Source: an uncultured Candidatus Saccharibacteria bacterium
GTDB taxonomy: Bacteria; Patescibacteriota; Minisyncoccia; Phycocordibacterales; UBA9973
DNA: 59,474 nucleotides
Assembly (NCBI GenBank): GCA_964563615.1
Contig: CAZLWF010000005.1
Location: 1-59,474, forward strand
Direction: 5' to 3'
Part shown: positions 9,780 through 53,311 of the stretch, in pieces
Position numbering within the stretch: the stretch's first letter is position 1
Layout: every line of letters starts with the position of its first letter
Made by a program: the position numbers and the translations under genes
The notes under the pieces: generated by a model
What the model was told of the DNA's origin: nothing
Databases searched by the model: none
What the model saw: the letters and a program-made list of their open reading frames with translations, nothing else

Positions 9780-10538
9780 TTATATTAAATCAAATTCGAG
9801 ATAAAGAGGATTATGATCAGAAACTACATCTGCCAACACTTTGAAATCTCTAACAATTATTTCTGGAGAGCAAAATATGTAATCAGCAAATTTAAGTGTT
9901 TTTTTATAGAGTTCTGTGCGGGTTGAAATTATATTATATTCTTTTATAAGATTTTTTAAACCTATATCTTCAAGCATTTGCATACTTTGAGTGTTCGGTA
10001 AAAGATTGAAATCACCTACTATAATCTGAGGACCATCAAAAGATTCTATTAAATCAACTACTATCTTTGATTGATTAAGTCTTTTTTCACTATCACTCTT
10101 CCCTTCCGGTCGATGAGTGAAGTGTGTATTCATTATCCTTAGTCTGCTGCCTTTCACTAGTAAATCAAACCATTGCAATTTCCTATCATGATCTCTATTT
10201 TCTACATCATTAGATTCTTCCCAATTTCCTTTAGCAATGAGAATATCTCCTTTTTCTAAAACTTCAATTTTTTTATTTATATATGTTGCAATACCATAAC
10301 GCTCCTCTAGTACATCACAAAATTCATAATTATGATTTTCTAAAGAATTTCTAATTTGTTCAAAAAGATCATGTTTTACTTCCCGACCTGAAACCTGAAC
10401 AAATGCTTGAGAATTTTGGTTCTGCTTATAAATTTCTTGAAAACAAAAGATGTCTATCTCATTTTTTCTACTTTCGATAAAGTTCTTTAGTCCAGGCCAG
10501 ACTCTTCCACCCCATGCATTAAGTGTAATAAGTTTCAT
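9780..10538 (-). CDS. Endonuclease/exonuclease/phosphatase (EEP) family protein
   Basis: LITLN, FCFQE, NTHF, GDFN, DYIF and SDHNP motifs. The ATG overlaps the ileS TGA (TGATG). Confidence 0.9.
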   Translation of the reverse strand: MKLITLNAWGGRVWPGLKNFIESRKNEIDIFCFQEIYKQNQNSQAFVQVSGREVKHDLFEQIRNSLENHNYEFCDVLEERYGIATYINKKIEVLEKGDILIAKGNWEESNDVENRDHDRKLQWFDLLVKGSRLRIMNTHFTHRPEGKSDSEKRLNQSKIVVDLIESFDGPQIIVGDFNLLPNTQSMQMLEDIGLKNLIKEYNIISTRTELYKKTLKFADYIFCSPEIIVRDFKVLADVVSDHNPLYLEFDLI

Positions 10539-13500: not shown

Positions 13501-13969
13501 AATCACTCTTGTAGGTGATGTAGGGATTTTTGTGATCTACCCAATATCCGGATCGATCAGTAAATCGTTCCCATTCATCGATATATTTCCACACACTCTC
13601 ACGGCATTTATCATTGAATGCTGCAATACCGTAGGATTCGATTTCTTTTTTGGATTTCAATCCCAATTCTTTTTCGACTTGGAGTTCTACTGGTAACCCA
13701 TGTGTATCCCAGCCGCCTTTCCTACGCACATGAAATCCTTGCATTGTTTTATACCGTGGAAATGCATCTTTGAAACAACGAGGTTCTAGGTGGTGAATGC
13801 CAGGCTTGCCATTGGCTGTCGGCGGACCATCATAGAAAACAAACTCACCCTTTGGAGATTCTTTCTCAAGAGATTTTTGGAATATAGTATTATCTTTCCA
13901 AAACTGCAAAACTGCTTCTTCACGAAGCGCTGTGTCTGATTTATTATTTTGTTCGTTGTTCTCTAACAT
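10538..13969 (-). CDS. ileS: Isoleucine--tRNA ligase, type 2, with inserted histidine-phosphatase domain
   Basis: FYDGPPTANGKPGIHH, GWDTHGLP, WTTTPWTLP, WAISRERYWG and KMSKS. The RHG...VTHGG domain is inserted before VMDVWFDSG. Confidence 0.95.
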   Translation of the reverse strand: MLENNEQNNKSDTALREEAVLQFWKDNTIFQKSLEKESPKGEFVFYDGPPTANGKPGIHHLEPRCFKDAFPRYKTMQGFHVRRKGGWDTHGLPVELQVEKELGLKSKKEIESYGIAAFNDKCRESVWKYIDEWERFTDRSGYWVDHKNPYITYKSDFIESIWNIVSKVHDKGLLYKDYKVVPWCPRCGTALSSHELAQGYQDDTDLSVTAKFKIVGTDNGYFLAWTTTPWTLPGNVGLAVGKDVVYVEVKVGDEILVLAKERLSVIAEPHEIIAEHTGNEMVGMQYEPLYPYLQNLDAGDEKLVNAYKVYPADFVTTTDGTGIVHTAVMYGQEDFELGTKVGLPKFHLVDEAGHFVKGTDFLEGKFVKDEETAVDVIKDLAHRGLLFKKEKYTHSYPHCWRCKTALIYYARDSWYIRMSTLRDTLVAENHKINWEPDHTKEGRFGEWIREVKDWAISRERYWGTPLPIWVATDGEVLVVDSFETLKKYTKKSGNTYFVMRHGEAEHNLGGFISEIVDAPDHLTEKGREQVRVSAEELKKQNIELIIASPFVRTEETTEIIREILDLPKESIIIDDRLREFKVGNAGFKTWIEYHTTLPKNAENFSFAYPDGESYMDVKKRSMDLLYELESKYQNKNILLVTHGGPSWLLVAGAQGLDPDRSLDLVTDKKEFKYLNNAEVRELPFVPLPHNVNYELDPHRPFIDEIVLERDGKEFRRVKEVMDVWFDSGAMPFAQDHYPFENKDFVEGPGYPADFISEAIDQTRGWFYTLLAVGVLMDRGLAYKNVICLGHILDKDGKKMSKSIGNVVDPWTMIEKYGVDTLRLWMYSVNQPGESKNFDERTVGELQRQVFGLLYNILSFYELYRDTIVESDTSKVESKNILDQWVLARLDQVIVLTTEKLDAYKALEPVRAIRDFIGDLSTWYLRRSRDRIKDGDTDAKQTLYTVLKILAQVMAPFAPFAAEDIWQRLRHEADVESVHLSDWPGTQSIVNSKQLIENMQVVRDLCTVGNALRKKANIPVRQPLAFFFVTEDLSDYYKELIKDELNVKAVEKGPVIVFDERITPELKLEGEYREFVRAVQDMRKQAGLTPSDVISLSISPGAESLVTPFMNDFKKTVLAKEVTFADNNGQEVNIGEIIISINIE

Positions 13970-32072: not shown

Positions 32073-33809
32073 CTATATCTGTGGACAGTACTCCCACAAA
32101 TCTTTTTTATAATTATTTGAGCCAGACATTCCCGTTCCTAAATATCCCCTACTACCAATACTAAAAGCAATAGCATTTTTGCGCGCTGTTCCTGCAAAGT
32201 CGGCTTTTTGAGTCCAAGAGTCTAGTGTCGAGTCATATTCCCAGAAGTCTTTCAGAGTACTGTTATCCGTATTGCCTGTTCCAACATATCCCTTACTTCC
32301 AATAGTGAAGCCAACTGCCTCAGTGCGAGCTGCTCCTCCAAAGTCGGCTTTTTGCGTCCAGGTATTTCCTGTAGGATCGTATTCCCAGAAGTCTTTCTTT
32401 TTACCAAAATCATCTTCACCAGTTCCAAGATATCCTTTTCCATTCAATGCAAAGCCAATTGCGTCACTGCGACCAGCTCCCGCAAAGTCGGCTTTTTGCG
32501 TCCAGGTATTTACCAAAGGATCGTATGCCCAGAAAAAATTATTACTTGGGCCATTCATATTATGCCCGGTCCCAATATATTCTTTAGAATTTAAAGAAAA
32601 AGCCACACTACGATGCCAACCAATAATATTGGCACTAGCTTTCTGTGTCCAGGTATTAAGTAGTGGATTATATTCCCACATATCATCAAAAGGGCCAGTG
32701 GTCCAATTTATACCAGTTCCCACATATCCTTTATCGCCAATTTTTAAACCAACAGCTGCCATGCGCGCTGTTCCTGCAAAATCGGCTTTCTGCGTCCAGG
32801 TATTTGCAAGTTGGTCATATTGCCAGAAATCTTTATAAAATTTATTTGTTCCACCATTGTATGCATATCCCGTTCCTATATATCCTTTGTTATCAATAGA
32901 AAAACCGATAGCTTCATGGCGACCAGAACCTCCTAAATCTGCTTTCTGAGCCCAAGTATTGGGTGTACAAGCTGCGGGGGCGACATTAACTGTTATTTGT
33001 GCAGTTGCTGTATTTGCCGTACCAACTGCAGTCAATTTAAATACTGTTGTTTGAGTAAGCGGCGACGTAGTAACTGAACCTTGGATTATCGTTGGTGTGA
33101 TGGAACCAATACCTTGATCAATTAGCCCGGTATTGCAATTTGCTGTTTTCCAATTGAGTGTTGTTGTCTGTGCGTAGGCAATCGTTAGTGGAGTGGCATT
33201 AAAAAGCAAGATGGTGCACTGCGGCGGCGGAATGACTGTTATTGTTTTTGTAGCTGTCGCAGTATTGGTAGCATTTGATGCAGTTAGGGTAAATACTGTT
33301 GTTTGAGTTAAATTACCTGTAGAAATAGAACCATTGACTGGCACAGTAGTAATCGTAGGAGAAATAGAGGCATTCGTACAATTTTGTGTAGCCCAAGATA
33401 GGACAGATGCTGTATTGTAGGCAATTGAGATTGGGTTGGCTATAAAAGAATTAATACTACAGACTGACGGAGTGCCTACGGTGACGGTAGTATACGCAGT
33501 TGCACTATTGGCATCCCCTACTGCTGTTAGTGTATAAGTTTTTGTGACTGAGAGTGGGCCTGTTGAAACAGAACCAGAAGGCAGTGGAGAAGAAATAACT
33601 GAAGTAGAGCCTTGAGTGACAAGGTTGGTCATGCACCCTGTGGTAACCCATTTAAGTGACGATGACCCACCAGAACTTACTGAAGCAGGTACAGCTTTAA
33701 ATGATGTAATAGCACATGGAGTAAGTGTTTCGTCATCCGCTGAAACAGTAAAAGGGTTACAATAGATAAAAGCTACTACTATAAGGACTCCCCAAAATAT
33801 TTTTTTCAT
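32073..33809 (-). CDS. Secreted protein with three Ig-like repeats and a six-bladed Kelch propeller
   Basis: Signal peptide, three C-x-I-x-x-F-x-A-x-P repeats, and six W(T/A)QKA...GYxGTG repeats. Confidence 0.85.
   Translation of the reverse strand: MKKIFWGVLIVVAFIYCNPFTVSADDETLTPCAITSFKAVPASVSSGGSSSLKWVTTGCMTNLVTQGSTSVISSPLPSGSVSTGPLSVTKTYTLTAVGDANSATAYTTVTVGTPSVCSINSFIANPISIAYNTASVLSWATQNCTNASISPTITTVPVNGSISTGNLTQTTVFTLTASNATNTATATKTITVIPPPQCTILLFNATPLTIAYAQTTTLNWKTANCNTGLIDQGIGSITPTIIQGSVTTSPLTQTTVFKLTAVGTANTATAQITVNVAPAACTPNTWAQKADLGGSGRHEAIGFSIDNKGYIGTGYAYNGGTNKFYKDFWQYDQLANTWTQKADFAGTARMAAVGLKIGDKGYVGTGINWTTGPFDDMWEYNPLLNTWTQKASANIIGWHRSVAFSLNSKEYIGTGHNMNGPSNNFFWAYDPLVNTWTQKADFAGAGRSDAIGFALNGKGYLGTGEDDFGKKKDFWEYDPTGNTWTQKADFGGAARTEAVGFTIGSKGYVGTGNTDNSTLKDFWEYDSTLDSWTQKADFAGTARKNAIAFSIGSRGYLGTGMSGSNNYKKDLWEYCPQI
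32341..32511. repeat. Intragenic Kelch-repeat duplication
   Basis: The 27 bp aagtcggctttttgcgtccaggtattt is identical at 32341-32367 and 32485-32511, 144 bp apart. Further degenerate copies flank it. Confidence 0.9.
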
Positions 33810-33854
33810 AAGCGCGTTATATCATATGTGTATTATTTGTCAAATTTGGAGCAG

Positions 33855-33883
33855 TTGACTTATTCTAGAATTTAAGGTACAAC
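33855..33883 (+). promoter_or_regulatory. Sigma70 promoter of 33960-35576
   Basis: TTGACT-17 nt-TACAAC. Confidence 0.55.
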
Positions 33884-33959
33884 GTTACCAAGCTGTTACT
33901 CGCGCCTGGACCTTTCCTTGCGGATAAAGAGCAGTTTTTTTACAAAAAAATAACAAGAG

Positions 33960-35576
33960 ATGAAAAAGATTTTCTCACTTACATTAGGGGCAATGCTTTG
34001 CCTTACACTTTTTTTCACCGCACCAGCGATGGCACAATCAGCACCAAACGTCGAATGGCAGAAAAGTCTCGGCGGAACAAAAAGTGAAGTTTTCAATAAG
34101 GTGTTTCAAACACCCGATGGTGGACAGCTATCCATAGGATATGCATTCTCAAATGATGGGAATGTATCCGACAATCACAGCAACAATGGCTCCGATGCAT
34201 GGATTGTGAAAACTAACTCCATGGGAGATATCCAATGGCAGAAATGCCTCGGTGGAAACAAAAACGAAGCCTTCCTTGGTGGCACTCCACTCAGTAATGG
34301 AAACTGGGCATTCGTTGGATATACATCTACACAAAATAACACTGATGATGTAAAAGATAAGCATGGCAACGACACAATAAATGACATATGGGTTGTCATA
34401 ACTGATCCCAACGCTAATATTATAGTCCAAAAATGTCTGGGTGGCGCCTTAAGTGAAGTGGGTAATTCTGTCATTGAAATAGATGGAGGTGACATATTGG
34501 TTGCTGGATACACAGAGTCGAGCGACGGAGATGTTACCGGACACAAAGGTGGTAAAGATGCATGGGTTGTCAGACTTACCTCAAGCCTCGGTGTCGTTTG
34601 GAGCAAAACCTACGGCGGAAGTGATGATGACTATGCGAACGAGCTATTTTATTATGCAGGAAAATGTGCTTTTGCTGGGGCATTCAAATCTGCAGATGGT
34701 GACATCACAGACTGGGGCTACGAAAATGCTGGCGGATTTGATGGAATAGCACTCCACTTTTCGCCCACTAATGGTAACATCGCTGCACTTACAGCATGGG
34801 GAGGTAGTAATGATGATTATCTTACTTGCGTCGCATTAGGAACAGACAATAACCTTATGTTTGCCGGAGCAAGTAATTCTGGGGATGGAAATATACCGGA
34901 AAACAAAGGTGAAGCTGACTGTCTCAACGTACAACTTGATCAAGAAGGAACCAGCTGGTATTTCACCACAACTGATGGCGGAAGTGACATTGATAGTGTG
35001 ATGGCAATCTGCACGGTAAATCAATTCTTCATTGAAGCTGGCGCTTCCCGTTCAAATGACGGAGATGTTACCGAGAATAAAGGCGGATACGACGTCAGAT
35101 TGACTGAAAAATTGCTTGAGGATGGAACAGTTGTGTGGGATAAGACCTATGGTGGAAGCGGTGATGACTATGCAAATAGCATTGCTTCGGCTGGAAGTGG
35201 TAGTTATTTTGTTGCTGGAGCTACAAGCTCTACTGACATTGATACAATGACCAACCACGGTGAACTTGATGGATTATTGATCAAATTCTCTGGCGATTTC
35301 GGAACCAACACTCCAGCCATTGCAAACGAAGATGTGTTTGCGGTGAATATTTATCCAAACCCAACTTCTGACTTAGTGACTATTTCCTTCAATGGAATGG
35401 CACCAACAGAATTTGCATTGTTCAAGACAAACGGTCAACTCATCACCCGGGAGAATGTGGCACTCGGAACACAGCAGATGACATTTGATCTAAAGAACTT
35501 TGCAGCCGGTACATATACTTTCCGTTTTGCTGGCAACGGAAAGGCATATATAGAACGAGTTGTAGTTGCAAAATAA
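33960..35576 (+). CDS. Secreted beta-propeller protein with T9SS type-A C-terminal sorting domain
   Basis: Signal peptide and repeated W(Q/S/D)K(S/C/T)(L/Y)GG blades. The C-terminus reads VNIYPNPTSDLVTI...NGQLI...DLKNFAAGTYTFRF...IERVVVAK. Confidence 0.85.
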   Translation: MKKIFSLTLGAMLCLTLFFTAPAMAQSAPNVEWQKSLGGTKSEVFNKVFQTPDGGQLSIGYAFSNDGNVSDNHSNNGSDAWIVKTNSMGDIQWQKCLGGNKNEAFLGGTPLSNGNWAFVGYTSTQNNTDDVKDKHGNDTINDIWVVITDPNANIIVQKCLGGALSEVGNSVIEIDGGDILVAGYTESSDGDVTGHKGGKDAWVVRLTSSLGVVWSKTYGGSDDDYANELFYYAGKCAFAGAFKSADGDITDWGYENAGGFDGIALHFSPTNGNIAALTAWGGSNDDYLTCVALGTDNNLMFAGASNSGDGNIPENKGEADCLNVQLDQEGTSWYFTTTDGGSDIDSVMAICTVNQFFIEAGASRSNDGDVTENKGGYDVRLTEKLLEDGTVVWDKTYGGSGDDYANSIASAGSGSYFVAGATSSTDIDTMTNHGELDGLLIKFSGDFGTNTPAIANEDVFAVNIYPNPTSDLVTISFNGMAPTEFALFKTNGQLITRENVALGTQQMTFDLKNFAAGTYTFRFAGNGKAYIERVVVAK

Positions 35577-35594
35577 AAACAGCCAGACGCGTAC

Positions 35595-35627
35595 AAACCT
35601 TCCTGAGGAAATCAGGAAGGTTTTTTT
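35595..35627. terminator. Intrinsic terminator
   Basis: aaaccttcctga-ggaaa-tcaggaaggttt followed by T's. Confidence 0.85.
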
Positions 35628-35684
35628 ATTTCCGGAAATGGCACGAACTATTTATTTTAATTTTTCTCAATTCAAAAGAAGAAT

Positions 35685-36722
35685 CTACAAAATCGGTTCT
35701 CGTTGTTGTGGCTTGTACCAATGATGTTCGATCGTATATTCGTCATAGCCATGGGTAAACGTTGCGATTGCAGTACCGATAAGGATAAGATGTGGCCACA
35801 CCGCTTCTCCGAAAAAGAGAAGTGACATCGTCAAAAACGAGAGGAAGAAAAGCGAAGTGAATCGTATTTCAAATCCAATCATAAAGAAAAATCCAATGAG
35901 AAGTTCAAGCGTAAACGCACCGAAAACGAGAAACATCGGATCAAATGGAAAGTAGTTTGTTAGGTGATATTTGGCGACCGTATCAAGTGCAAGTGTGCCA
36001 TGAAGAAACTTGGCGTAGCAGGAAGCAAACATAAGCGATATACCAAAAAGTATTCGCATAATGAGGAAGCTATACGGCCGTATATGAGCTGCCATTTGAG
36101 TCAGCATTATTGACCATGACGTAGGCTTTGAGTATATGCGATATGCACCACCAAAAATAACGAGGACTGTCGCTTCGCCCAGGTAAGTAAAGTAGCTAAC
36201 CATGTAGATTCCTTTTTTAGAAAGCATATAGAGAAAAAGCAATCCAACGACAAAGCTTCCAATTCGAGGAAAGAACCCAAAAAGTACTGAGACACCTACA
36301 GTATAGACAATAAATTGGAATAAGATTGTTTGTACTGGAAAGAAATAACTGAACGGCAATTCCAATCCAAAAATTGATCCATAGTATGCGCTTGCGATGA
36401 GCGCCAATCCGAAAGTCGCCTGGGCAATGTGACCTGCATATGGCTTTATTTTAAATAAGAAGGGATCAATCTTGCGTTCGAGCCATTTTGAAATTGAAAG
36501 GAAAAAGACAAGTGTAATACTAATGCAGACGACGAAACCCCAAAAAAGAAATTCATAGGTATGCCCTAAAACAACTTGTCTAAAATTGAGCGCCGGTGCT
36601 TGGAGAGCACTCGTTACCTCCTCTGTATTTAAAACATAGACTTCGTGTGCACGAGCTATGTACGGCAATATGATAGCGCTGATACTACCAAGGATGAGGC
36701 CAAAACGTTTTGAGAGTTGCAT
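35685..36722 (-). CDS. DoxX-like multi-pass membrane protein
   Basis: Two internally similar halves (MRILFGISL...YAKFL...LELLIG) and EAVWPHLILIG. Confidence 0.65.
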   Translation of the reverse strand: MQLSKRFGLILGSISAIILPYIARAHEVYVLNTEEVTSALQAPALNFRQVVLGHTYEFLFWGFVVCISITLVFFLSISKWLERKIDPFLFKIKPYAGHIAQATFGLALIASAYYGSIFGLELPFSYFFPVQTILFQFIVYTVGVSVLFGFFPRIGSFVVGLLFLYMLSKKGIYMVSYFTYLGEATVLVIFGGAYRIYSKPTSWSIMLTQMAAHIRPYSFLIMRILFGISLMFASCYAKFLHGTLALDTVAKYHLTNYFPFDPMFLVFGAFTLELLIGFFFMIGFEIRFTSLFFLSFLTMSLLFFGEAVWPHLILIGTAIATFTHGYDEYTIEHHWYKPQQREPIL

Positions 36723-42045: not shown

Positions 42046-44523
42046 TTATAATTTTGGACATGTTTCTTGAGCCCAGGTGGTGTAGAGACCTTGTGTTATC
42101 TTACCCCATAGACCATCCACTTTAGTTCCGAGAATCGTCTGGGCTGTTTTAATACCAGTCAAGGATTTTGGACCAATAATACCGTCCGTCACTAGCTGAG
42201 GTGTAGCTGCATCTAGCTGATTAACAGCCTTTTGTACCACTTTTGCGTCTTCACCTTTGAGTCCAATCTTAACCAATACATTAGGTGTCCCAACAATTTC
42301 ACATCCGAGAGTATAGCCACTAGGATCTATTTCATTATCATCGACGGTGCTTGTACAACCCGGATCACTTGGATAATCCATCTTGCCATCTCCATCATTG
42401 TCTTGCCCATCACTGCAACTATACGAAATATAGTTGCCGCCTGAACCTAATGGAGGAGCCGGAGTATCTTCGACTATAACTTCTTCATCAGACTCGTCAT
42501 CATCGCTTGCAGTTGTACAGCCCGGATCATTCTCATCCGAAAGACTATCTCCGTCATTATCAACACCATCTCCACACTGATAGGTTACTGTATTTCCGGT
42601 TGTAAAGGTTTGGTCAGGAGAACTTACTGTATTACTGCTTTCATCAGTTGATATGATCGACGCATGGTAGAGCGTACCCGGAGTTAGGTCGTGCAATGTA
42701 ACAGAGTGACTTGTAACTCGTGGCAGTGTATCACTTGTCCCAGTCGTTAATCCATAACCCGTTGTGGTGCCATAATTAACGAGCGTCGAAGCTAATTCGT
42801 CAGTTGTCCAAGTTATTACTGCTGTTGTATCTGTTGGAGAAATAGTAATGCTCGATAATACTGGATCTATAGTATCTGGGGCATCCGGCGTCACTTCTGT
42901 ATAACTAAAGCCTGATGAACAGCCAGAGACATTGCCAGAACTATCAGTTGCTGTTGATCGGAATGTTGTTGTTGAATTGTCTGCAACTGAGACAGTGAGA
43001 CCTGGGGAGGCAAATTTATTTGATGTGCCTGAAATAATAACACTTCCAGCACATGTGCTATCTGCGTATATTTTTACTGTTGTACCGCTTGGTGCTGTTC
43101 CTTTTAGTTTAGGGCTGTTATTGTTAGAACCAGAAATTGGATTAGAAGAGCTTATTGTTGGGGTTACTGGTAAAACAACAGCGAGAGTGGTAAAGAAATT
43201 ATCCGACGAAGCTCCAATATTCCCTGCTGCATCTTTTGATTTTACAGAAAAATGATACAGCGTATTTGCAGCTAGTCCGGTTATCGTCACGCTATGGTTA
43301 GTCACTTTCGGTGAAATATTTGTTTCACTTGTCGAATTAGTGTACGAAGTCGTTGTCCCGTAATCAACACTTGATGAAGATGCTTCGTTGGTAGTCCAGG
43401 TAATAGTTGCCGTCGTTTGTGTAGGCGTAACCCCTATCGAAGAGATTACAGGATCAGTAGCATCCGGCGTCACTTCTGTATAACTAAAGCCTGATGAACA
43501 GCCAGAGACATTGCCAGAACTATCAGTTGCTGTTGATCGGAATGTTGTTGTTGAATTGTCTGCAACTGAGACAGTGAGACCTGGGGAGGCAAAGGCTGCC
43601 GCAGTTCCTGAAGCAACTGGACTTCCACTACAGCTAACTGTTGTATAAAGTGCAACAGTCGTACCCGCATCAGCAGAGCCTAATAGCTTTGGACTATTGT
43701 TGTTTGACCCGGAAATTGGATTCGATGAAGTGATAGCTGGTGTAGCTGGAAGAATAACAACAGCTGTGTCTGTTGTAAATGTATTATCTGAAGAAGTACC
43801 TGTATTACCACTTGCATCTTTTGATTTCACATCAAAATGGTAAGCCGTATTTTGTGTAAGACCAGTTATCGTAACTGAGTGTTGAGTTACCATAGGCAAT
43901 ACATCCTCCTCAGTCGTTGTGCCATATGAAATAGTGCGACCATACTCGACGATTGAAGATGCATCTTCATTAGTACTCCACGTTATGGTTGCCGATGTTT
44001 CTCCTGGATTGACTGCAATTGAGGAAATGATTGGAGCACTTGTATCTGGAACAATAACATCCGTTATAACAACAGTAATCGGATCACTTTGCTCTGATGT
44101 ATTACCACTTCCATCAGTTGCAGAAACTGCAAATTTATAGGTACCAGCGGTAAGACCACTGATTGTAGCTGTATTTGTTGTAACCGTTGCTACGATATTA
44201 CTTGTCTTTTCATTTATATTTTGCGTTGCATTCGGGGTAAGGGCACTCTTGATACTGCTACCAAAATCAACAATACTATTAACAACAGTTGAGAATGTAC
44301 TTTCTTGTTTTGGCACTGGGGTTGGTGTAGGTGTCTCTGGCTCTGATTGAGTAGGTCTTTGGCGTGGAGTATCAGTTACTCTTGGTTCAGATGTATCAAT
44401 AACTCTAGCAACGCCGGTAAAATTTTGGTTACTGTGGGTCAAAACAAAATAACCACCACCAAGTATAACGGCCAAAAGTAAAAGTACTTTTACTGCGTTG
44501 TAGTTCGGATTAGAGAAATTCAT
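42046..44523 (-). CDS. Surface protein with FN3/Ig-like repeats, two Cys/Asp-rich motifs and a C-terminal peptidoglycan-binding domain
   Basis: N-terminal TM helix, ATITWxTNE..SS.V.YG repeats and CxDGxDNDGD..xxDPGC twice. The PG_binding_1-like end reads GEDAKVVQKAVN...DGIIGPKS...VDGLWG. Confidence 0.85.
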   Translation of the reverse strand: MNFSNPNYNAVKVLLLLAVILGGGYFVLTHSNQNFTGVARVIDTSEPRVTDTPRQRPTQSEPETPTPTPVPKQESTFSTVVNSIVDFGSSIKSALTPNATQNINEKTSNIVATVTTNTATISGLTAGTYKFAVSATDGSGNTSEQSDPITVVITDVIVPDTSAPIISSIAVNPGETSATITWSTNEDASSIVEYGRTISYGTTTEEDVLPMVTQHSVTITGLTQNTAYHFDVKSKDASGNTGTSSDNTFTTDTAVVILPATPAITSSNPISGSNNNSPKLLGSADAGTTVALYTTVSCSGSPVASGTAAAFASPGLTVSVADNSTTTFRSTATDSSGNVSGCSSGFSYTEVTPDATDPVISSIGVTPTQTTATITWTTNEASSSSVDYGTTTSYTNSTSETNISPKVTNHSVTITGLAANTLYHFSVKSKDAAGNIGASSDNFFTTLAVVLPVTPTISSSNPISGSNNNSPKLKGTAPSGTTVKIYADSTCAGSVIISGTSNKFASPGLTVSVADNSTTTFRSTATDSSGNVSGCSSGFSYTEVTPDAPDTIDPVLSSITISPTDTTAVITWTTDELASTLVNYGTTTGYGLTTGTSDTLPRVTSHSVTLHDLTPGTLYHASIISTDESSNTVSSPDQTFTTGNTVTYQCGDGVDNDGDSLSDENDPGCTTASDDDESDEEVIVEDTPAPPLGSGGNYISYSCSDGQDNDGDGKMDYPSDPGCTSTVDDNEIDPSGYTLGCEIVGTPNVLVKIGLKGEDAKVVQKAVNQLDAATPQLVTDGIIGPKSLTGIKTAQTILGTKVDGLWGKITQGLYTTWAQETCPKL
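42881..43593. repeat. Perfect 134-bp intragenic direct repeat
   Basis: 42881-43014 is identical to 43460-43593 by base-by-base reading. Confidence 0.92.
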
Positions 44524-44595
44524 ATTGGTTTTAATTTTACCATACTAATACAATTAAGTTAAACACTAATCTATATACATAATGTTTCCTTCTGG

Positions 44596-47493
44596 TTAAT
44601 TCAAAATTTTTGCAATATTGCTATAATTTTGCGGACAGCCACCCACAATAACATCTGTATATAGTTTAGCGAAAATATCTGGAATAATTTCATCTGCATG
44701 ACCTACTTTATGACCTGTGCCAGGCCAATGGGTAAACGTAGATGGGATAACAGCCATAATCTGGTCAAAAGCACTTTTAACTGATGTGTATTCAAGCGTA
44801 TGGTCATCTTCACCATGATAATCATGCATTGGTCCATCATTTACATCAAGAAACGTATTTAGCATGGTCATCGTTACACCGCCCGGATGTCCAGCTGCAG
44901 AACAAATCCATGAAGGTTCATTCATATTACTCAAGCTCACTCTTGCATCGCTTGTAATCGCCGCATTATTCATATTGTTACCTAGCATGTCAGCTGTAAA
45001 TGAGGTAAGGCCACCTGCTGAGGTACCGGTTGCGACAATGCGGTTTTTATCAAAATTATAAACTCCTGCATTCGCGCGGGCCCATCGTACCGCAGCCGCA
45101 AGATCTGTACCTGCCAAAATTTGATTAGCATTATTAAAATTGCCACCGCCTTCACCTCGATAGTTTATCGATGCACATGCCCAGCCCCGCATAGTGAAAT
45201 CTTTACACCACCCACTATCAGCTTTATCTCCTCCGCCACCATGAAGATTAAACGCAAGTGGCAATCGTTCATTAGATTCATTTGGTGGTAAATATAAATC
45301 TAGAAATAGTTCTGTATTATCACCGTCTGGCGCAGTTGCATATTGATAGGTATTTTTTGATACTTCTGAAAAAGCAAAAATCTCATTGCAGTAGCGTAGC
45401 GTTCCCGTATCATTACCATTGCTCGTAACGCAATTTGTCCCGCCGCCCACGGTACTACCTGACTCATCCTCCCCTTCAATCTGATACACCGTATACTCTG
45501 CGACATTACCACTATCATCAGTTGATGCATCCCACGAGAGAGTGGCTGATGAGGGTGTTGTTGATTGGGTGGCAAGATTAGTTGGGATAGATGGTGGAGT
45601 GGTGTCATCGGCAAGTGTAGCAAGACCAAGTCCTTCAATTTTTGTTATAGAATATTTTGCCAATGAAACACAGTCTGTTCCTGTTGCTTGTGATTCACCG
45701 ATCATGCAAGATGTTATCGGTGTAATTTGATCAAATAGGTTATCAGTAACCATGAGATCCATATTTTCAGCATCAGGATTTCTGTCATCCCCTATACCGT
45801 AGGTTGAAGAAAGTGATTCTCCTTTTATCCAAGAAACTGACAGAGTTGCCTGAGGATCACTAATTGCCTCTCCGTTTATTTCGATCGTCGAAAGTGGCAC
45901 CACTCGATCAGACCAGTTTATAAAATAATATGTTTTTTCACTCGTGAGAATATCCTCGAAACCATAGACTTGGAATTGCCCTTGTGGGACACCACTTACA
46001 GTTGATTGGAGATCAATTACTTTTTGATGCCCTGAGAAAACATCTTTAATGAGTTTGTACGTCAATCCAGAAACATAGAGCTTTAGTGGCGCTGAATCAT
46101 AACTGCCCGTACTGTTATACACTTCATTATCAGGGATTTGCTGGTCTTTAGTTGCGGGATTAATGCTTTTGGCAACTTTTTGCTTTCCTAGAACATGACT
46201 TGAATATCCTCCCAAATTCGTACTCGAAGCACTTGCAATAATGTTGTCATGCGTATGGTTAAATTGTGCAAGTTTGAACAGATACTCAGCCTCAAATGCA
46301 GCGTTGGCTATAGTATTATTGAATGCAGCAGCGGTAAAATTAGATGTCAATTGACTTTGATCGTAATTGTTGATTTCTTTTTGCGTAACTCTAAATTTAT
46401 GATTACCAAAATAGCTTGTATAGCTCGTAAGTGCAGCTTGCATTTTGCCATCTAAAAATTCTCGACTCTTATCACGGAAGCAGTCAAATATATCTATACC
46501 AGGATGTTGCGATGGATCACAGACATTATCATAATCCACCAAATCATCACCATTTAAGTAGGTGCCATACTCAATATTTACTATATCGCTAAAACCAATT
46601 TTACAATTTGGATCAGAACTTGTTGAGTCCCCTTTAATACACTTATTCCAACTCGAACTTGCACCGTAGTCTTGTGCATCTTTTTTAGGCTTCTTCACGT
46701 GAATCTGAATTTTCAAATCTGGCATGTTATGAGTTTGAGCCCAAGCTTGTATTGCCAAAGCAAGAGGATGAACGCGTGCCACAAAGTGACTTGCACTTGT
46801 AAATGCTTGCACTCCTTGTGTTGTCGACGGAGCTTCAACACTACACTCTGAGCAAAGCTGCACACCTTCAAGTACAACACCTGGATGGTTGCTACGTATG
46901 TCATTAAGCAGTGCAATATTTTCATCAATCATTTTCTGTATACTTCCTGGATCAGTTGGGATTGGTGCGGTGAGCGGCATACCATCAGCTACTTGTGTAA
47001 CAACATTCAACGAATAAGTCGCTACTGGTCGGCGCATGTGTGGAATAACATTCAAGAACTTATCGTGAAAACGAGCGATGTTAGTATACTTGGTTGTATA
47101 GTTTTGTTCAGTTTCTTTTGTGCCATCGCCGTTCCAAAAGTCAGTTTCATTGGCACGAAATCCTTCTCCCCACCCGTCGAAATGTGCATAGTTGGCATTT
47201 ACTCCTGGTAGATAACGGAGCATATTGAGCCCTGTGTCATTTAATGCATTAAAAAAATCCTGGTTTTCAACGTTATAAAAACTATCAATCTGATTATCGA
47301 GGCCAGAAGACAGTAGTGACGGCAAGACTGCACCATCGTAAATTAGACCACCAATGTCAATTGTTTGTGCACCATTAAAATTAGTCCTACGTACTATATT
47401 GAAAACTATAAAAATTCCAAGCACAATAATAACAAGTATTAATAGGAGAATTTTGACAACATTGTACTCTGGTTTTCTTAAAAAATTAAACAT
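44596..47493 (-). CDS. Surface protein with a clan-A-like glycoside hydrolase barrel, FN3 and an alpha/beta esterase
   Basis: TM anchor, LRYLPG...LCSE barrel motifs and a DTTPPSIPTNL...LSWDASTD FN3. The esterase shows LHGGGG, GTSAGG, HGEDD and GH. Confidence 0.75.
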   Translation of the reverse strand: MFNFLRKPEYNVVKILLLILVIIVLGIFIVFNIVRRTNFNGAQTIDIGGLIYDGAVLPSLLSSGLDNQIDSFYNVENQDFFNALNDTGLNMLRYLPGVNANYAHFDGWGEGFRANETDFWNGDGTKETEQNYTTKYTNIARFHDKFLNVIPHMRRPVATYSLNVVTQVADGMPLTAPIPTDPGSIQKMIDENIALLNDIRSNHPGVVLEGVQLCSECSVEAPSTTQGVQAFTSASHFVARVHPLALAIQAWAQTHNMPDLKIQIHVKKPKKDAQDYGASSSWNKCIKGDSTSSDPNCKIGFSDIVNIEYGTYLNGDDLVDYDNVCDPSQHPGIDIFDCFRDKSREFLDGKMQAALTSYTSYFGNHKFRVTQKEINNYDQSQLTSNFTAAAFNNTIANAAFEAEYLFKLAQFNHTHDNIIASASSTNLGGYSSHVLGKQKVAKSINPATKDQQIPDNEVYNSTGSYDSAPLKLYVSGLTYKLIKDVFSGHQKVIDLQSTVSGVPQGQFQVYGFEDILTSEKTYYFINWSDRVVPLSTIEINGEAISDPQATLSVSWIKGESLSSTYGIGDDRNPDAENMDLMVTDNLFDQITPITSCMIGESQATGTDCVSLAKYSITKIEGLGLATLADDTTPPSIPTNLATQSTTPSSATLSWDASTDDSGNVAEYTVYQIEGEDESGSTVGGGTNCVTSNGNDTGTLRYCNEIFAFSEVSKNTYQYATAPDGDNTELFLDLYLPPNESNERLPLAFNLHGGGGDKADSGWCKDFTMRGWACASINYRGEGGGNFNNANQILAGTDLAAAVRWARANAGVYNFDKNRIVATGTSAGGLTSFTADMLGNNMNNAAITSDARVSLSNMNEPSWICSAAGHPGGVTMTMLNTFLDVNDGPMHDYHGEDDHTLEYTSVKSAFDQIMAVIPSTFTHWPGTGHKVGHADEIIPDIFAKLYTDVIVGGCPQNYSNIAKILN

Positions 47494-47546
47494 GTATAAA
47501 TAGTATACCAGCTTCTTATCTTTTTTTGCTATACAGGTACATCCTG

Positions 47547-50534
47547 TTAGTCAGCAATGTGTGTAAGATTGCTATAACTTTGCGGGCAGCTTTCACCAAT
47601 TAGCTCATTATAGGCTCTAGGGATAACAATTTTATCTATTGCATCATCTTCTCCGAGACCATGACCTGAATCATCAAAACATTGGAAGTAACTTGGAATA
47701 CCGAAGCTTTGCATAATGCCAAGTGCCTCATCACCATCATCATTTTGTGCATCATCTGGATCTGAACAGTGCCAACCATGAGTCGTGTCTTCACCACCTA
47801 GGAAAAAGACGGACGGCGGATCATTAGCATCAATATAATTATACGCAAACGGCGCAAGTGGCCCAGATGTACTTGTTACCATGCAGCTCCACGATGGAAC
47901 AATACCCCCACTTTGATATGTTTGATTATCTCTGTTAACCAGCGTATCGCTTGATGGGTAAAATGATGCATCATTGGCAGTGGTCGCAGCAAGCATAGAA
48001 GTAATACCTCCAGCAGAAGTACCTGCCAATATTATTTTGTTGGGATCTATACCATAGTCAGTCGCATGTAGTCGTGCAAATCTAATTAACGCTAGCATAT
48101 CTGAAGCCGCATGTTTTTGCTCTGACATGGTAAAACCCATATTTGTGTGGTCAGTTCGATAATCACCAGAGATACAGACATACCCTAGTCGAGCTGCTTC
48201 ATTACATGGAGCTGCCCCTCCTTCAGATTCACCGCCACCGCCATGCATAAATATTTTAAGTGGACGATTTCTTGCTGTATCTGAAAGTGGCGGTGTGTAG
48301 AGATCAAACGCCAAATCATACGTGCTTGAAAATTCTATACCGGCAGTACCTAAGGCAACCGAAGGCTCTGGAATCTCTGACTGAGTGAAGATCTCATTAC
48401 AGTAGCGAAGCTCACCCGGAGTACCCGCAACATCTGGATCACAAACTGGAATTTCTTCCTCTTCTCCCCCGTCATCAGTAATCTGATACACCGTATACTC
48501 TGCGACATTACCACTATCATCAGTTGATGCATCCCATGAGAGGACAGCTGACGTTGGAGTTGTTGATTGCACGACAAGATTACTAGGAACAGATGGTGGA
48601 GTAGTGTCGGCAGGCAGAGCTACCATTTGATTTGGATCAAAGACAAAGTAACCAAAGGAATACGCTGGTATATAGAGGCTGCCAAGTGTTGTGTCGACAT
48701 CTTTATAAACAACTGCAGTTTCATTTGCATCGATATACCCATCAGTTTTTAGATTTGTATTACCTCTGCCTGCATAGAGATGATCTCCAGCTATATACGC
48801 ATAGGTAATTGGTGTCTCAATATTTATAGGTTCATTATTTACAACAAATGGCGCAGTATCTCCAACTTGTCTTAATCCAAGTGAAACTCCTGAAAGGTTC
48901 GTAACATAGACAAAATATTTTCCGTCTTCTCCTCTGTATGCATCTACTCGTAAATAAGGATTGGTGTCATCAGAAATAATATCTGTATCGTTTGATGTAC
49001 TGACTGAGGCATCAACGTATGATGCATTATTTTCAACAATAGTATTCATAAACTGTATTGGCCAATAAGTCATCCGACGAACTGCATCATCTTTATGCGT
49101 ACCTGCAGCAACCACATCGGTAACGGTATTATTTATTTCATCCCAATCGCCCACACTATCAACAAAACCTTCAGGTCCATCGAGTGTACCAATCGGACCA
49201 AATAGATTTGTACTAATTGCATGAATATCAGCTACAGGCACAGTGCCAGGATGTGCTGCATTATAAGCATTAATTGTATTCAAAAATCCACCAACGAATA
49301 TTGCCTGAAGTAGAGTGTTTGAATACAGTCCTTCCGTTGGTGTCGTTTTTATTTCAGTATTGTACTCAGTAAAGAGAATCTCTTTGCCTGGCATAAGCGC
49401 CTGATAATACTCAATAGTATCAATAACTAATTCATTATCATTGATGGCATGGGAAGCTCGAGCGCAATCCATCAAAGCATCAATACCCCCCAAAGTACCA
49501 CAGACCTGACTACCCGAAGAACCTGAGGGTGGATATGCTACGGGAGGGTAGTAATGAGTCGTAATCGCATCTGCAGTTAAAGTTCCATTTTGCATAGCAT
49601 TCGCGAGGCCATTATTCCAATTCTTGTAACTAATATTATTATTGAGGCCTACCTTCCAGTAAGGCGCTGCATTGGCAGCAATGACAATTGATGGATCAAA
49701 ATCACGGATAGCTTGCGCATATGGTTCGACGCGTGCGACATAATCAGCAACTTTGTATAAACCATTTGTACAACCAGTGTCGCAATACCATGCATTGTCT
49801 GCTTGTATATAATGTTCTTCACCAAGTTCGACATACTTTACATCTACACCGAGTGCCTTGAGGCGACCAAGTGCAGAAAGCACATCGCTGACTGTGCCCG
49901 TTGAAGGATTAATGGTAAACATATTCGTTGCATCAATGCGCGTAGCCATTGGTGCAAAATCTTCCAGATAATTATGTCCAATTGTTGTTTGATTCTGATA
50001 GGTGCCTTGACTGACATCTTCAGCATATGAATTATCTGGACTGTATATGAACATTTGACATGGCCAATGCCCATTGCCGTGGTTCAATGCCCCAAGCGGC
50101 ATAGCAAAAATAGGATCACCAGACAGATCGTGGAGCGACGGGCATGATTTGTACTGATCAGGCACAACGGCATCAATTGGATGAAAAAAATTTGCTTCAG
50201 CTCCAGGCATGCGGTAGTTAGTAAATCCTGCTGCGTCAAGAAACGCATTTAGCGTTTCATCATGAAAATCCATCGTATCAAATATTGCTTCCAAATTAAC
50301 ACCGAGTAAATCTGACTCAACCGGTGCATGTACAACATCTGTGATTGCAATCGTTATTGACTCTTCAGCTGTGGCGTCTCCCCAGGGGTAGACGAAGTCA
50401 ATAACTTGCGCTCCGTTAAAGTTATACCTAAGACTTGTATTAAAAACCACAAAAACTCCAAGTGCAATAATCGCAACTATGAGAAAAAAGAGTTTAACGA
50501 CATCGTATTGAGGATTTCGTAGAAAATAAAACAT
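47547..50534 (-). CDS. Surface protein with a clan-A-like glycoside hydrolase (GH51/GH79-like), FN3 and an alpha/beta esterase
   Basis: YRMPG, VKYVELGEE, ITTHYY and LFTEYN, then an FN3 domain. The esterase shows MHGGGG, GTSAGG, GGED and SGH. Confidence 0.8.
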   Translation of the reverse strand: MFYFLRNPQYDVVKLFFLIVAIIALGVFVVFNTSLRYNFNGAQVIDFVYPWGDATAEESITIAITDVVHAPVESDLLGVNLEAIFDTMDFHDETLNAFLDAAGFTNYRMPGAEANFFHPIDAVVPDQYKSCPSLHDLSGDPIFAMPLGALNHGNGHWPCQMFIYSPDNSYAEDVSQGTYQNQTTIGHNYLEDFAPMATRIDATNMFTINPSTGTVSDVLSALGRLKALGVDVKYVELGEEHYIQADNAWYCDTGCTNGLYKVADYVARVEPYAQAIRDFDPSIVIAANAAPYWKVGLNNNISYKNWNNGLANAMQNGTLTADAITTHYYPPVAYPPSGSSGSQVCGTLGGIDALMDCARASHAINDNELVIDTIEYYQALMPGKEILFTEYNTEIKTTPTEGLYSNTLLQAIFVGGFLNTINAYNAAHPGTVPVADIHAISTNLFGPIGTLDGPEGFVDSVGDWDEINNTVTDVVAAGTHKDDAVRRMTYWPIQFMNTIVENNASYVDASVSTSNDTDIISDDTNPYLRVDAYRGEDGKYFVYVTNLSGVSLGLRQVGDTAPFVVNNEPINIETPITYAYIAGDHLYAGRGNTNLKTDGYIDANETAVVYKDVDTTLGSLYIPAYSFGYFVFDPNQMVALPADTTPPSVPSNLVVQSTTPTSAVLSWDASTDDSGNVAEYTVYQITDDGGEEEEIPVCDPDVAGTPGELRYCNEIFTQSEIPEPSVALGTAGIEFSSTYDLAFDLYTPPLSDTARNRPLKIFMHGGGGESEGGAAPCNEAARLGYVCISGDYRTDHTNMGFTMSEQKHAASDMLALIRFARLHATDYGIDPNKIILAGTSAGGITSMLAATTANDASFYPSSDTLVNRDNQTYQSGGIVPSWSCMVTSTSGPLAPFAYNYIDANDPPSVFFLGGEDTTHGWHCSDPDDAQNDDGDEALGIMQSFGIPSYFQCFDDSGHGLGEDDAIDKIVIPRAYNELIGESCPQSYSNLTHIAD

Positions 50535-52096: not shown

Positions 52097-53311
52097 ATGC
52101 ATAAATATTCAAAAAACTTTTCTATAGTATTTTCTTTTCTCGTAGTAGTACTTACGCTTTTTGGTGTATCACAAGCCAGCTTTGCGGCAACAACCCAAGT
52201 AAAACCATTTGAAGTCACTGGCTGGATTCCCTACTGGAGTGTGACTGCAGGCACAACCGTAGCAAATAAAAATTTAACTACTTTAACCTCGATATTTCCT
52301 TTCGGCTACGGCGTCAATACTGATGGCACCCTTACTGATCTCGCCAAACTCGCTACATCACCGACGTGGGCAAGTCTCAAGACTAGTGCTAATGCTAAAC
52401 AAGTAAAATTTATTCCGACGATCACCTGGACAGACGGTACAGCGATCAATCAAATACTCTCTGATAAAACCCTTCGTACCAAACATGTCGACACTATTGT
52501 CGCTATGGTTGAAAATGGCAAATTTGATGGCGTCGATATTGACTATGAGAAAAAACTTGCAGTAACGAAAGACAACTTCTCTATGTTTCTAACGGAGCTC
52601 AAAGCAAAGCTCGGCAGTAAAACTCTCGTCTGCTCGATCGAAGCTCGCACACCACTTGCATCGTTATATCGTGTCATTCCGACAAACATCCAGTATGCCA
52701 ATGACTACAAAGCTATCGGCAAAGCATGCGATAGAGTCGTCATACTCGCCTATGATCAAGGCCGTGCAGATTTCGTCTTGAATAATACCAAAGCTGGTGC
52801 ACCGTATAATCCCATCGCTGATGTTGAGTGGGTAAGAAAAGTAGCAACACTTGCATCTGAATCAATCCCAAAAGAGAAAATCCTCCTCGGTATTCCGACC
52901 TATGGATTTAACTATGAAGTAACGATCGCACCGAACTGGTTCAAGAGTTACAAAAAGGTCTCTTCTGCTACCGCTTCATATGCCACCCAAACTGCGACAC
53001 TCTTTGGTATCACTCCTACGCGCAATAAATCAGGCGAGATGAGCTACTCATTTGCCACTGGATCCACACCCAAAGAAGTCGCAACCTACAAACTACCAAG
53101 TACACTCACGAGTGATACATTTGCCAACCGAGCACTCGCCTATGCTAATGCTACCGGCAAAACGTTTACCTTCAACACTGTCTGGTGGAGCGACGCTGAT
53201 GCTATCAAGCAGAAAGTAACTCTCGCTAAAGAGTTAGGTCTCGCAGGCATTTCCCTATTTAAAATAGATGGCAATGAAGATCCAAATATCTGGGCGATGC
53301 TTGCCAAATAA
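52097..53311 (+). CDS. Secreted GH18 glycoside hydrolase (chitinase/spore-cortex-lytic-like)
   Basis: Signal peptide, intact FDGVDIDYE (DxxDxDxE), LAYD, LGIPTYG and WWSD...KVTLAKELGLAGI. Confidence 0.88.
   Translation: MHKYSKNFSIVFSFLVVVLTLFGVSQASFAATTQVKPFEVTGWIPYWSVTAGTTVANKNLTTLTSIFPFGYGVNTDGTLTDLAKLATSPTWASLKTSANAKQVKFIPTITWTDGTAINQILSDKTLRTKHVDTIVAMVENGKFDGVDIDYEKKLAVTKDNFSMFLTELKAKLGSKTLVCSIEARTPLASLYRVIPTNIQYANDYKAIGKACDRVVILAYDQGRADFVLNNTKAGAPYNPIADVEWVRKVATLASESIPKEKILLGIPTYGFNYEVTIAPNWFKSYKKVSSATASYATQTATLFGITPTRNKSGEMSYSFATGSTPKEVATYKLPSTLTSDTFANRALAYANATGKTFTFNTVWWSDADAIKQKVTLAKELGLAGISLFKIDGNEDPNIWAMLAK

Follow-up and report, generated by a model that had tools for sequence, protein, structure and literature searches.

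A canonical type IX secretion system (T9SS) C-terminal domain (CTD) is, to judge from the genes present, maintained in a bacterial candidate phyla radiation (CPR) lineage that has neither a T9SS nor an outer membrane. The protein studied here, a seven-bladed beta-propeller followed by such a CTD, is encoded at positions 33960 to 35576 of a stretch of 59,474 nucleotides (contig CAZLWF010000005.1 of assembly GCA_964563615.1, deposited as an uncultured Candidatus Saccharibacteria bacterium); this whole stretch is called the window below, and coordinates refer to it. The CTD is understood as a signal for translocation across, and attachment to, the outer membrane. Reviews of the T9SS describe the system as specific to Bacteroidota or to the Fibrobacteres-Chlorobi-Bacteroidetes (FCB) group (PMC7463736, PMC12398890). 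Canonical CTDs that are kept without the machine therefore point either to a second, machine-independent function or to reading by the T9SS of a partner cell, and either answer bears on the surface-protein display of CPR epibionts and on the identity of their hosts.

The 538-residue protein was modeled with AlphaFold2 (AF2) from 22 aligned homologues, with a mean predicted local distance difference test score (pLDDT) of 85.8. The gene and its parts are as follows:

33960-35576, + strand: propeller-CTD gene, including the stop codon; intact frame of 538 aa
33960-34034, + strand: Sec (SPase I-type) signal peptide, aa 1-25; MKKIFSLTLGAMLCLTLFFTAPAMA then Q, with basic residues, a hydrophobic core and an A-x-A site
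34050-35288, + strand: seven-bladed beta-propeller, aa 31-443, made of ~60-aa repeats
35295-35339, + strand: flexible linker, aa 446-460; AF2 pLDDT <50 at residues 448-459
35340-35573, + strand: type-A T9SS CTD, aa 461-538; predicted seven-stranded beta-sandwich reaching the last residue of the protein

An earlier note, made from the sequence alone, had claimed an intact frame with a type-A CTD at its end, and both claims are borne out. The 538-aa frame is open, and its C terminus is matched by Por_Secre_tail (PF18962; residues 464 to 536, profile positions 1 to 75 of 75, E = 9.9e-11, 42.2 bits against a gathering cut-off of 27) as well as by TIGR04183 ("T9SS type A sorting domain"; profile positions 1 to 71 of 72; 31.5 bits for the whole protein and 37.7 bits for its last 77 aa, cut-off 23). 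The motifs named in the note are readable in the sequence as NIYPNP, TNGQ, AGTY, and a terminal ERVVVAK. TIGR04183 had no match in 14 named control genomes, and the only NCBIfam models matching the studied protein at E <= 1 were CTD-related ones. Within the CTD, AF2 predicts strands at residues 461-465, 472-478, 484-489, 494-499, 506-510, 517-525, and 528-536, with a pLDDT of 75 to 86 over the block. A seven-stranded sandwich is the fold described for T9SS CTDs (PMC10994853); the closest known ones are the RgpB (gingipain R2) and mirolase CTDs and the C-terminal part of the lipase 7pzj (PDB 5hfs, 5ag8, 8qb1, 7pzj). A PDB sequence search with the last 81 aa matched residues 298 to 358 of the 366 residues of 7pzj (E = 9e-4), a C-terminal part that we take to be a sorting domain on the strength of its YPNP motif; the chains of gingipain R2 (5hfs) and mirolase (8qb1) were only non-significant matches (E 0.09 to 0.4). 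The domain stands at the extreme C terminus (464-536 of 538) of a protein with an N-terminal Sec signal peptide, modeled by AF2 as a helix at residues 2-19 with low pLDDT and probably cleaved before Q, at aa 25/26. Judged by profile, motifs, and predicted fold, the C-terminal domain is a genuine type-A T9SS CTD.

The genome that carries it belongs to a CPR bacterium, as the earlier note had assumed. This genome (645 kb in 29 contigs, GC content uniform at 0.37 to 0.42) is a real Nomurabacteria-type CPR genome: the nearest relatives of the arginyl-tRNA synthetase in the window (44 to 63% identity) come from metagenome-assembled genomes (MAGs) named Candidatus Nomurabacteria, Paceibacterota, Parcubacteria, Patescibacteria, or Saccharibacteria. 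Since these relatives are CPR MAGs, an FCB-group genome was rejected. The locus is surrounded by ordinary housekeeping genes, namely, an FtsE/FtsX/M23 module, endonuclease V, ABC exporters, aminoacyl-tRNA synthetases, and enolase. Four separate assemblies, two of them JGI metagenomes and the other two Logan run assemblies, contain positions 32960 to 36576, with the protein and both gene junctions, at 100% identity. Compared with the long open reading frames (ORFs) of the genome, the propeller-CTD gene falls within the native range: it is at the 86th percentile for GC content (0.436), at the 70th for GC content at third codon positions, and at the 81st for codon usage.

Two further CTD proteins, both with signal peptides, are encoded on other contigs of the same genome. 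The second CTD protein (435 aa; contig C1, 66941-68248, L001) adjoins nusA; the third (727 aa) contains a sulfatase domain, has N-terminal repeats that look FN3-like by eye, and adjoins secA. Relatives carry a homologue of the propeller-CTD gene beside the same neighbor or neighbors, in one case in a single-contig genome. Chimeric assembly and contamination were rejected because the locus is identical in four assemblies, has the same neighbors in relatives, and is native in composition. The earlier note had named three ways in which it could be wrong, and the opposite was found for each: the assembly is not chimeric, the genome is not of the FCB group, and the C terminus passes the CTD hidden Markov model (HMM).

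T9SS machinery was searched for at E <= 0.01 in whole genomes, in six frames, using the genome of the window and nine relatives, three of which are single-contig genomes (G041, G078, and G006); Flavobacterium dankookense, Chryseobacterium ginsengisoli, and Runella aurantiaca served as positive controls. SprA_N (PF14349) and PorV (NF033710) were each found in 0 of the 10 CPR genomes and in all three Bacteroidota controls, and the PorU sortase (NF033707) gave nothing above the cut-off in the 10 CPR genomes as against 3 of 3 controls. The same contrast (0/10 versus 3/3) was seen for GldK/PorK, GldL/PorL, and GldM/PorM (TIGR03525, TIGR03513, and TIGR03517), GldN/PorN not having been searched. None of the 10 CPR genomes had a match to Omp85/BamA (PF01103) either. 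All three Bacteroidota controls had one, as did 7 of the 14 named control genomes, these seven being double-membrane bacteria.

Six component families and BamA are thus missing from 10 CPR genomes and present in every one of the three controls, in line with the view of the earlier note that this is a CPR genome without a T9SS. The searches it had suggested for sprA and the porK to porN genes returned no match for sprA and porK to porM in the same genomes with the controls positive, porN being the component not searched. A hidden T9SS was rejected on the same results. The absence of BamA, which is a genomic proxy, suggests a cell without an outer membrane. The machinery that defines T9SS cargo was looked for and is lacking, so the studied protein is in all probability not the cargo of a T9SS of its own cell.

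The CTD is widespread in the GTDB family to which this genome belongs. TIGR04183 scored above its cut-off in 78 of the 101 genomes sampled from the family and matched in 41 of its 45 genera, with one to eight copies per genome, single-contig genomes included; 81 of the 101 genomes gave a match and 20 gave none. An even sample of the whole phylum gave matches in 18 of 401 genomes (~4%), two of the 18 belonging to this same family, and the sister families of the same order gave none in five genomes. All 107 extracted CPR CTDs end within a few residues of the stop codon, and none is internal. CTD-tagged proteins are, on this sampling, a family-wide trait. At a finer scale the genes are patchy, as the genera g31, g38, and g14 each hold genomes with and without them, and they behave as accessory genes, gained and lost.

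The cargo attached to these CTDs is varied and includes propellers, a sulfatase with FN3-like repeats, an M23 peptidase combined with a propeller and immunoglobulin (Ig) domains, a dockerin, and domains without a Pfam match. The one cargo domain checked for its relatives, that of the 435-aa protein, had only CPR relatives in a domain-restricted search of limited sensitivity. One of these relatives, at 37% identity, suggests a domain that looks as fast-evolving as the propeller-CTD gene. Three proteins of ~970 to 985 aa from the same genus (L128 in G088, L131 in G065, and L135 in G078) share its propeller repeats and have a type-A CTD as their end. In L128, the one scanned, there are also an M23 peptidase domain and Ig domains, which would fit a cell-wall-cutting enzyme with a tag. 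A full-text literature search found no paper linking T9SS CTDs to Patescibacteria; the NCBI annotation pipeline already labels several such CPR proteins.

Lauber et al. (2024; PMC10994853) report that the motifs conserved among type-A CTDs dictate the fold and not contacts with the translocon; the exception is a near-C-terminal lysine, which is almost invariant and functionally important (PMC10994853). We compared 107 distinct CTDs of the CPR family with 91 Bacteroidota/FCB CTDs. The per-column information content of the two sets is correlated with r = 0.976. The lysine column contains K in 76% and R in 13% of the CPR sequences versus 72% and 17%, respectively, in Bacteroidota, and a [KR]-hydrophobic motif 5 to 6 residues from the C-terminal end occurs in 82% of CPR CTDs, 89% of Bacteroidota CTDs, and 22% of the other ORFs of the genome. 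Scored with a model built from Bacteroidota only, the CPR CTDs reach 49.8 bits versus 54.5 bits for held-out Bacteroidota CTDs. The studied protein itself has Arg (in ERVVVAK) at the lysine position, and one positional counterpart has Glu; the near-C-terminal Lys may also be structural. A lineage-specific CTD subtype was considered and set aside, its signal being weak (area under the curve of 0.81, ~4 bits) and possibly a reflection of amino acid composition or relatedness.

Bacteroides thetaiotaomicron, one of the named control genomes, is not known to have a T9SS. It had no match to the CTD model, which suggests that CTDs do not simply linger after loss of the machine. In the CPR family the CTD appears to be kept by selection because it is always C-terminal, is conserved as in Bacteroidota, and is found on several different cargo domains.

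The history of the gene is best told from its surroundings, which comprise two flanking genes on the opposite strand, a candidate promoter, and a clean terminator:

32073-33809, - strand: kelch/Ig neighbor, a secreted protein of 578 aa in which several tandem Ig-like repeats precede a kelch propeller (Pfam kelch matches)
33837-33866, + strand: sigma-70-like promoter candidate, TTGTCA-18-TATTCT, ~95 nt upstream of the ATG; weak match
35595-35633, + strand: intrinsic terminator, 3' of the stop codon; 12-bp stem, 5-nt loop, and T-run
35685-36722, - strand: DoxX-like neighbor, a polytopic membrane protein with a weak DoxX match

A search of 5.8 billion proteins returned 5541 matches to the propeller-CTD protein, the best at E = 9e-160 with 98% coverage. 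Among the named relatives, Bacteroidota proteins predominate overwhelmingly; they are ~510 aa long, share the propeller and CTD layout, and show 30 to 39% identity. Among the best 80 loci in GTDB species representatives, most belong to Bacteroidota, Chlorobiota, and Kapaibacterium, with a few records named only "bacterium" and a few propeller-only copies from methanogens and Pseudothermotoga, and none is labeled CPR. The studied protein shares with this family full-length homology and seven repeats with WQK..GG, DGGY, DGD..G.HG, and D.W motifs, and some members carry the JGI label "delta-60 repeat"; the repeat consensus from alignment A1 is WQK.LGG...D.A.SIQQT.DGGYIVAG.T.SNDGDVTGNHG..D.WVVKL. 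AF2 arranges 28 strands as seven four-stranded blades with pLDDT mostly >85, blades 4 to 6 being degenerate relative to the Bacteroidota consensus.

Full-length homologues within the CPR family were found in G041, of the same genus, and in G025 and G044. In G041 the kelch-Ig neighbor is 74% identical and the DoxX-like neighbor 92% identical, against only 35% for the propeller-CTD gene that they enclose; the kelch-Ig gene also adjoins the propeller-CTD copy in G025 (68% identity) and G044 (64%). These flanking genes show that the homologues share one genomic position, and at least three genera of the family have a homologue beside the same neighbor gene. The propeller and CTD parts diverge at an equal rate (33 to 37% identity). 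The kelch-Ig neighbor, at 64 to 74% identity over three genera, evolves far more slowly than its propeller-CTD partner. Because it is 35% identical within a genus and its neighbors are 74 to 92% identical, the propeller-CTD gene is a candidate for diversifying selection.

In a maximum-likelihood tree of 73 full-length proteins, built with a quick tree search, four CPR copies form a clade of their own (99% SH-aLRT) on long branches, nested among Bacteroidota. Four further CPR sequences make up a second, weakly placed group, and the tree leaves room for a single origin of all eight. Since the protein family is overwhelmingly of Bacteroidota/FCB membership, origin by horizontal transfer is the best reading of its distribution, most probably as an old event with an FCB donor and with an ancestor of the CPR family as recipient. 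A recent one-off transfer was rejected on the basis of the separate CPR clade, the same neighbors in three genera, and the 35% identity within a genus. Of the horizontal acquisition from a Bacteroidota neighbor or host that the earlier note preferred, the FCB origin stands, supported by the spread of homologues; the acquisition was not a one-off or recent one, as position is conserved, composition is native, and divergence is fast. What followed the transfer is best read as vertical inheritance at a fixed locus with very fast divergence, as expected of a surface protein exposed to hosts or phages.

Relatives of the propeller with 33 to 41% identity also occur in methanogens (Methanosarcina, Methanotrichaceae, Methanospirillum, and Methanolinea) and in Thermotogae (Kosmotoga and Pseudothermotoga). 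These matches (L056, L065, L090, L115, and L073; P0047 and P0081) cover the propeller only, and for two named proteins of the set no Por_Secre_tail is listed. The methanogen and Thermotogae matches therefore indicate that the cargo domain has spread across domains of life.

The closest known counterparts are the Bacteroidota type-A T9SS cargo proteins, such as those of ~510 aa annotated "T9SS type A sorting domain-containing protein" in Chryseobacterium, Flavobacterium, Chitinophagales, and Saprospiraceae, which have the same end-to-end architecture at 30 to 39% identity over the full length, the same CTD motifs, and the same predicted fold. Unlike these proteins, the CPR protein is encoded in a genome without SprA, PorV, PorU, PorK, PorL, PorM, and BamA, its blades 4 to 6 are degenerate, and its near-C-terminal Lys is replaced by Arg. 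In Porphyromonas gingivalis, PorU cleaves such CTDs off and joins of the cargo are made to anionic lipopolysaccharide (A-LPS), whereas the CPR genome has no PorU, and an outer leaflet holding A-LPS is not expected without BamA. As a working analogy, LPXTG/sortase, PGF-CTERM/archaeosortase, and GlyGly-CTERM/rhombosortase tags share with the CPR CTD a strictly C-terminal position on many unrelated exported proteins. Those tags consist of a short motif followed by a transmembrane helix and have a dedicated processing enzyme encoded in the genome; the CPR CTD differs from such tags of single-membrane cells in being a folded sandwich of 75 aa for which a partner enzyme was not found.

For the propeller, the closest solved folds are those of CylK-type propellers (7ron and 7fh6; TM 0.64 to 0.66, E ~5e-21, 18 to 20% identity), 7ron being the best Foldseek match (TM 0.64, E = 5e-21). 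Photorhabdus PLL/PHL lectin propellers come lower in the list, with a target-normalized TM of ~0.65 and ~10 to 12% identity. The CylK and lectin matches cover only the propeller part of the CPR protein, and the modeled fold would be compatible with a propeller cargo that acts as a binding scaffold.

Taken together, the gene is best explained as a native and long-standing part of a Nomurabacteria-type CPR genome that evolves very fast and encodes a surface or secreted protein. The propeller-plus-CTD family would have been gained from FCB/Bacteroidota by an old transfer that preceded the split of several genera of the CPR family. Because the cell has no T9SS and no BamA, Sec export alone should suffice to place the protein outside what would be a single-membrane cell, and it follows from the same absences that the CTD would be no outer-membrane translocation signal in this cell. 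The propeller would present a variable binding face. The CTD has, in our estimate, an even chance of being a portable C-terminal module, independent of any T9SS of the cell itself, that retains, docks, or stabilizes exported proteins at the surface of the epibiont or at the interface with a partner. We infer the retention or docking role from the features described above.

Several observations weigh against this proposal. The CPR genomes yielded no partner for the CTD, nor do the gene neighborhoods show a recurring companion. CTD presence varies within genera and therefore implies no essential dedicated pathway. The CPR CTDs were themselves gathered by means of the CTD model, so that their likeness to it is inflated. 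As it is mostly the fold that the conserved motifs dictate (PMC10994853), a conservation profile identical to that of Bacteroidota points to a selected fold and not to the action of a signal. The one conserved Lys/Arg that is tied to the T9SS fits engagement of a T9SS at least as well as a T9SS-independent role. Finally, the tree derives from a quick search, and its CPR branches are long.

The point about the Lys/Arg leads to the main rival, that of host-directed mimicry, in which Sec-exported effectors or adhesins would be read by T9SS parts on the surface of a host, such as the PorV shuttle and the PorU/PorZ/PorQ complex. Recognition by PorV/PorU of a host was the bolder reading of the earlier note; the conserved Lys/Arg leaves it alive without demonstrating it. 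We consider such reading improbable, and it is equally doubtful that the CPR protein ends up docked, perhaps covalently anchored, on the outer membrane of a Bacteroidota/FCB host. The near-C-terminal Lys is the only conserved residue that the fold does not explain (PMC10994853), and the Lys/Arg is as conserved in the CPR family as in Bacteroidota, the [KR]-hydrophobic C-terminal motif occurring in 82% and 89% of their CTDs, respectively. The score of the CPR CTDs on the Bacteroidota-only model (49.8 bits, held-out Bacteroidota 54.5) would suit recognition by Bacteroidota, the donor lineage is FCB, and Bacteroidota have been reported as comparatively frequent donors of genes to Patescibacteria in aquifers (PMC12455944). 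The M23 peptidase and sulfatase cargo could act on the envelope of a partner. However, no host is known for this CPR family, and the CTD binding seen in the structures of PMC10994853 takes place at the translocon. The literature yielded no test of the capture of external CTD proteins, although no search was aimed at it. Also against mimicry, Lys is replaced by Arg in the studied protein and by Glu in one positional counterpart, and this Lys may have a structural role as well. Were mimicry true, the secretion signal of one organism would be read by the machinery of another, and Bacteroidota would be named as hosts of a large uncultured CPR family.

Passive carry-over of the CTD is disfavored. 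It would hold that the domain came with transferred Bacteroidota cargo and persists solely as a stable sandwich, which we judge unlikely, as we do its corollary that loss of the CTD would destabilize the protein and that the domain plays no part in sorting, anchoring, or docking. Such persistence would agree with conserved CTD motifs that specify the fold rather than machinery contacts (PMC10994853), with a whole propeller-CTD architecture that is common to Bacteroidota, and with the accessory, within-genus variable nature of the CTD genes. It is harder to reconcile with a CTD that still passes its model in a streamlined genome of 0.65 Mb, in a gene only 35% identical within the genus, and that is never internal and retains the non-fold Lys/Arg. 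Two further points against carry-over are that the CTD occurs on a cargo domain whose only relatives found were from CPR bacteria and that the B. thetaiotaomicron control has no CTD match.

We regard it as very unlikely that the CTD is read by a cryptic machine of the cell itself, be it a highly divergent T9SS-like system, another C-terminal sorting machine, or one acting at a second membrane. The strictly C-terminal position and the conserved Lys/Arg do look like a signal that is read, and Pfam has no match for many proteins of these genomes, yet searches at E <= 0.01, whose positive controls worked, detected neither the six T9SS families nor Omp85 in any of 10 genomes, genomes of 0.6 to 0.8 Mb leave little room for a system of ~20 genes, and CTD presence is patchy within genera. 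An artefact, whether through a contig that is chimeric, a bin contaminated by Bacteroidota, or an HMM match by chance, which the Bacteroidota identity of the gene's best database relatives might have suggested, is already effectively refuted by a locus that is 100% identical in four assemblies, homologues beside the same neighbors including one in a single-contig genome, native composition, three CTD genes on three contigs beside housekeeping genes, and two HMMs above curated cut-offs with no match in control genomes.

New in this work are the positive-controlled searches for the machinery, the comparison of the family with the remainder of the phylum, the lysine-column test, and the contrast at the locus, where a 35%-identical gene lies between neighbors of 74 to 92% identity.

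As to the remaining features of the window, the earlier note had described the promoter and the terminator of the propeller-CTD gene as native-looking. The terminator, with its 12-bp stem (35595-35623), is clean. The promoter is only a candidate, being a weak consensus match: it agrees at 9 of 12 consensus positions, and such sites are no commoner in the region than expected from shuffled sequence. Rfam and tRNA scans of the window returned nothing relevant. A class-I aminoacyl-tRNA synthetase of 1143 aa (10538-13969, - strand) has tRNA-synt_1 and Anticodon_1 domains, with a full His_Phos_1 domain (aa 497-663, E = 1.5e-32) inserted in the middle of its catalytic domain. A GH18 chitinase-like protein is encoded at 52097-53311 (+ strand), and three large tandem surface proteins with FN3, purple-acid-phosphatase N-terminal, and esterase domains lie at 42046-50534 (- strand); together they form a dense set of exported proteins within the window.

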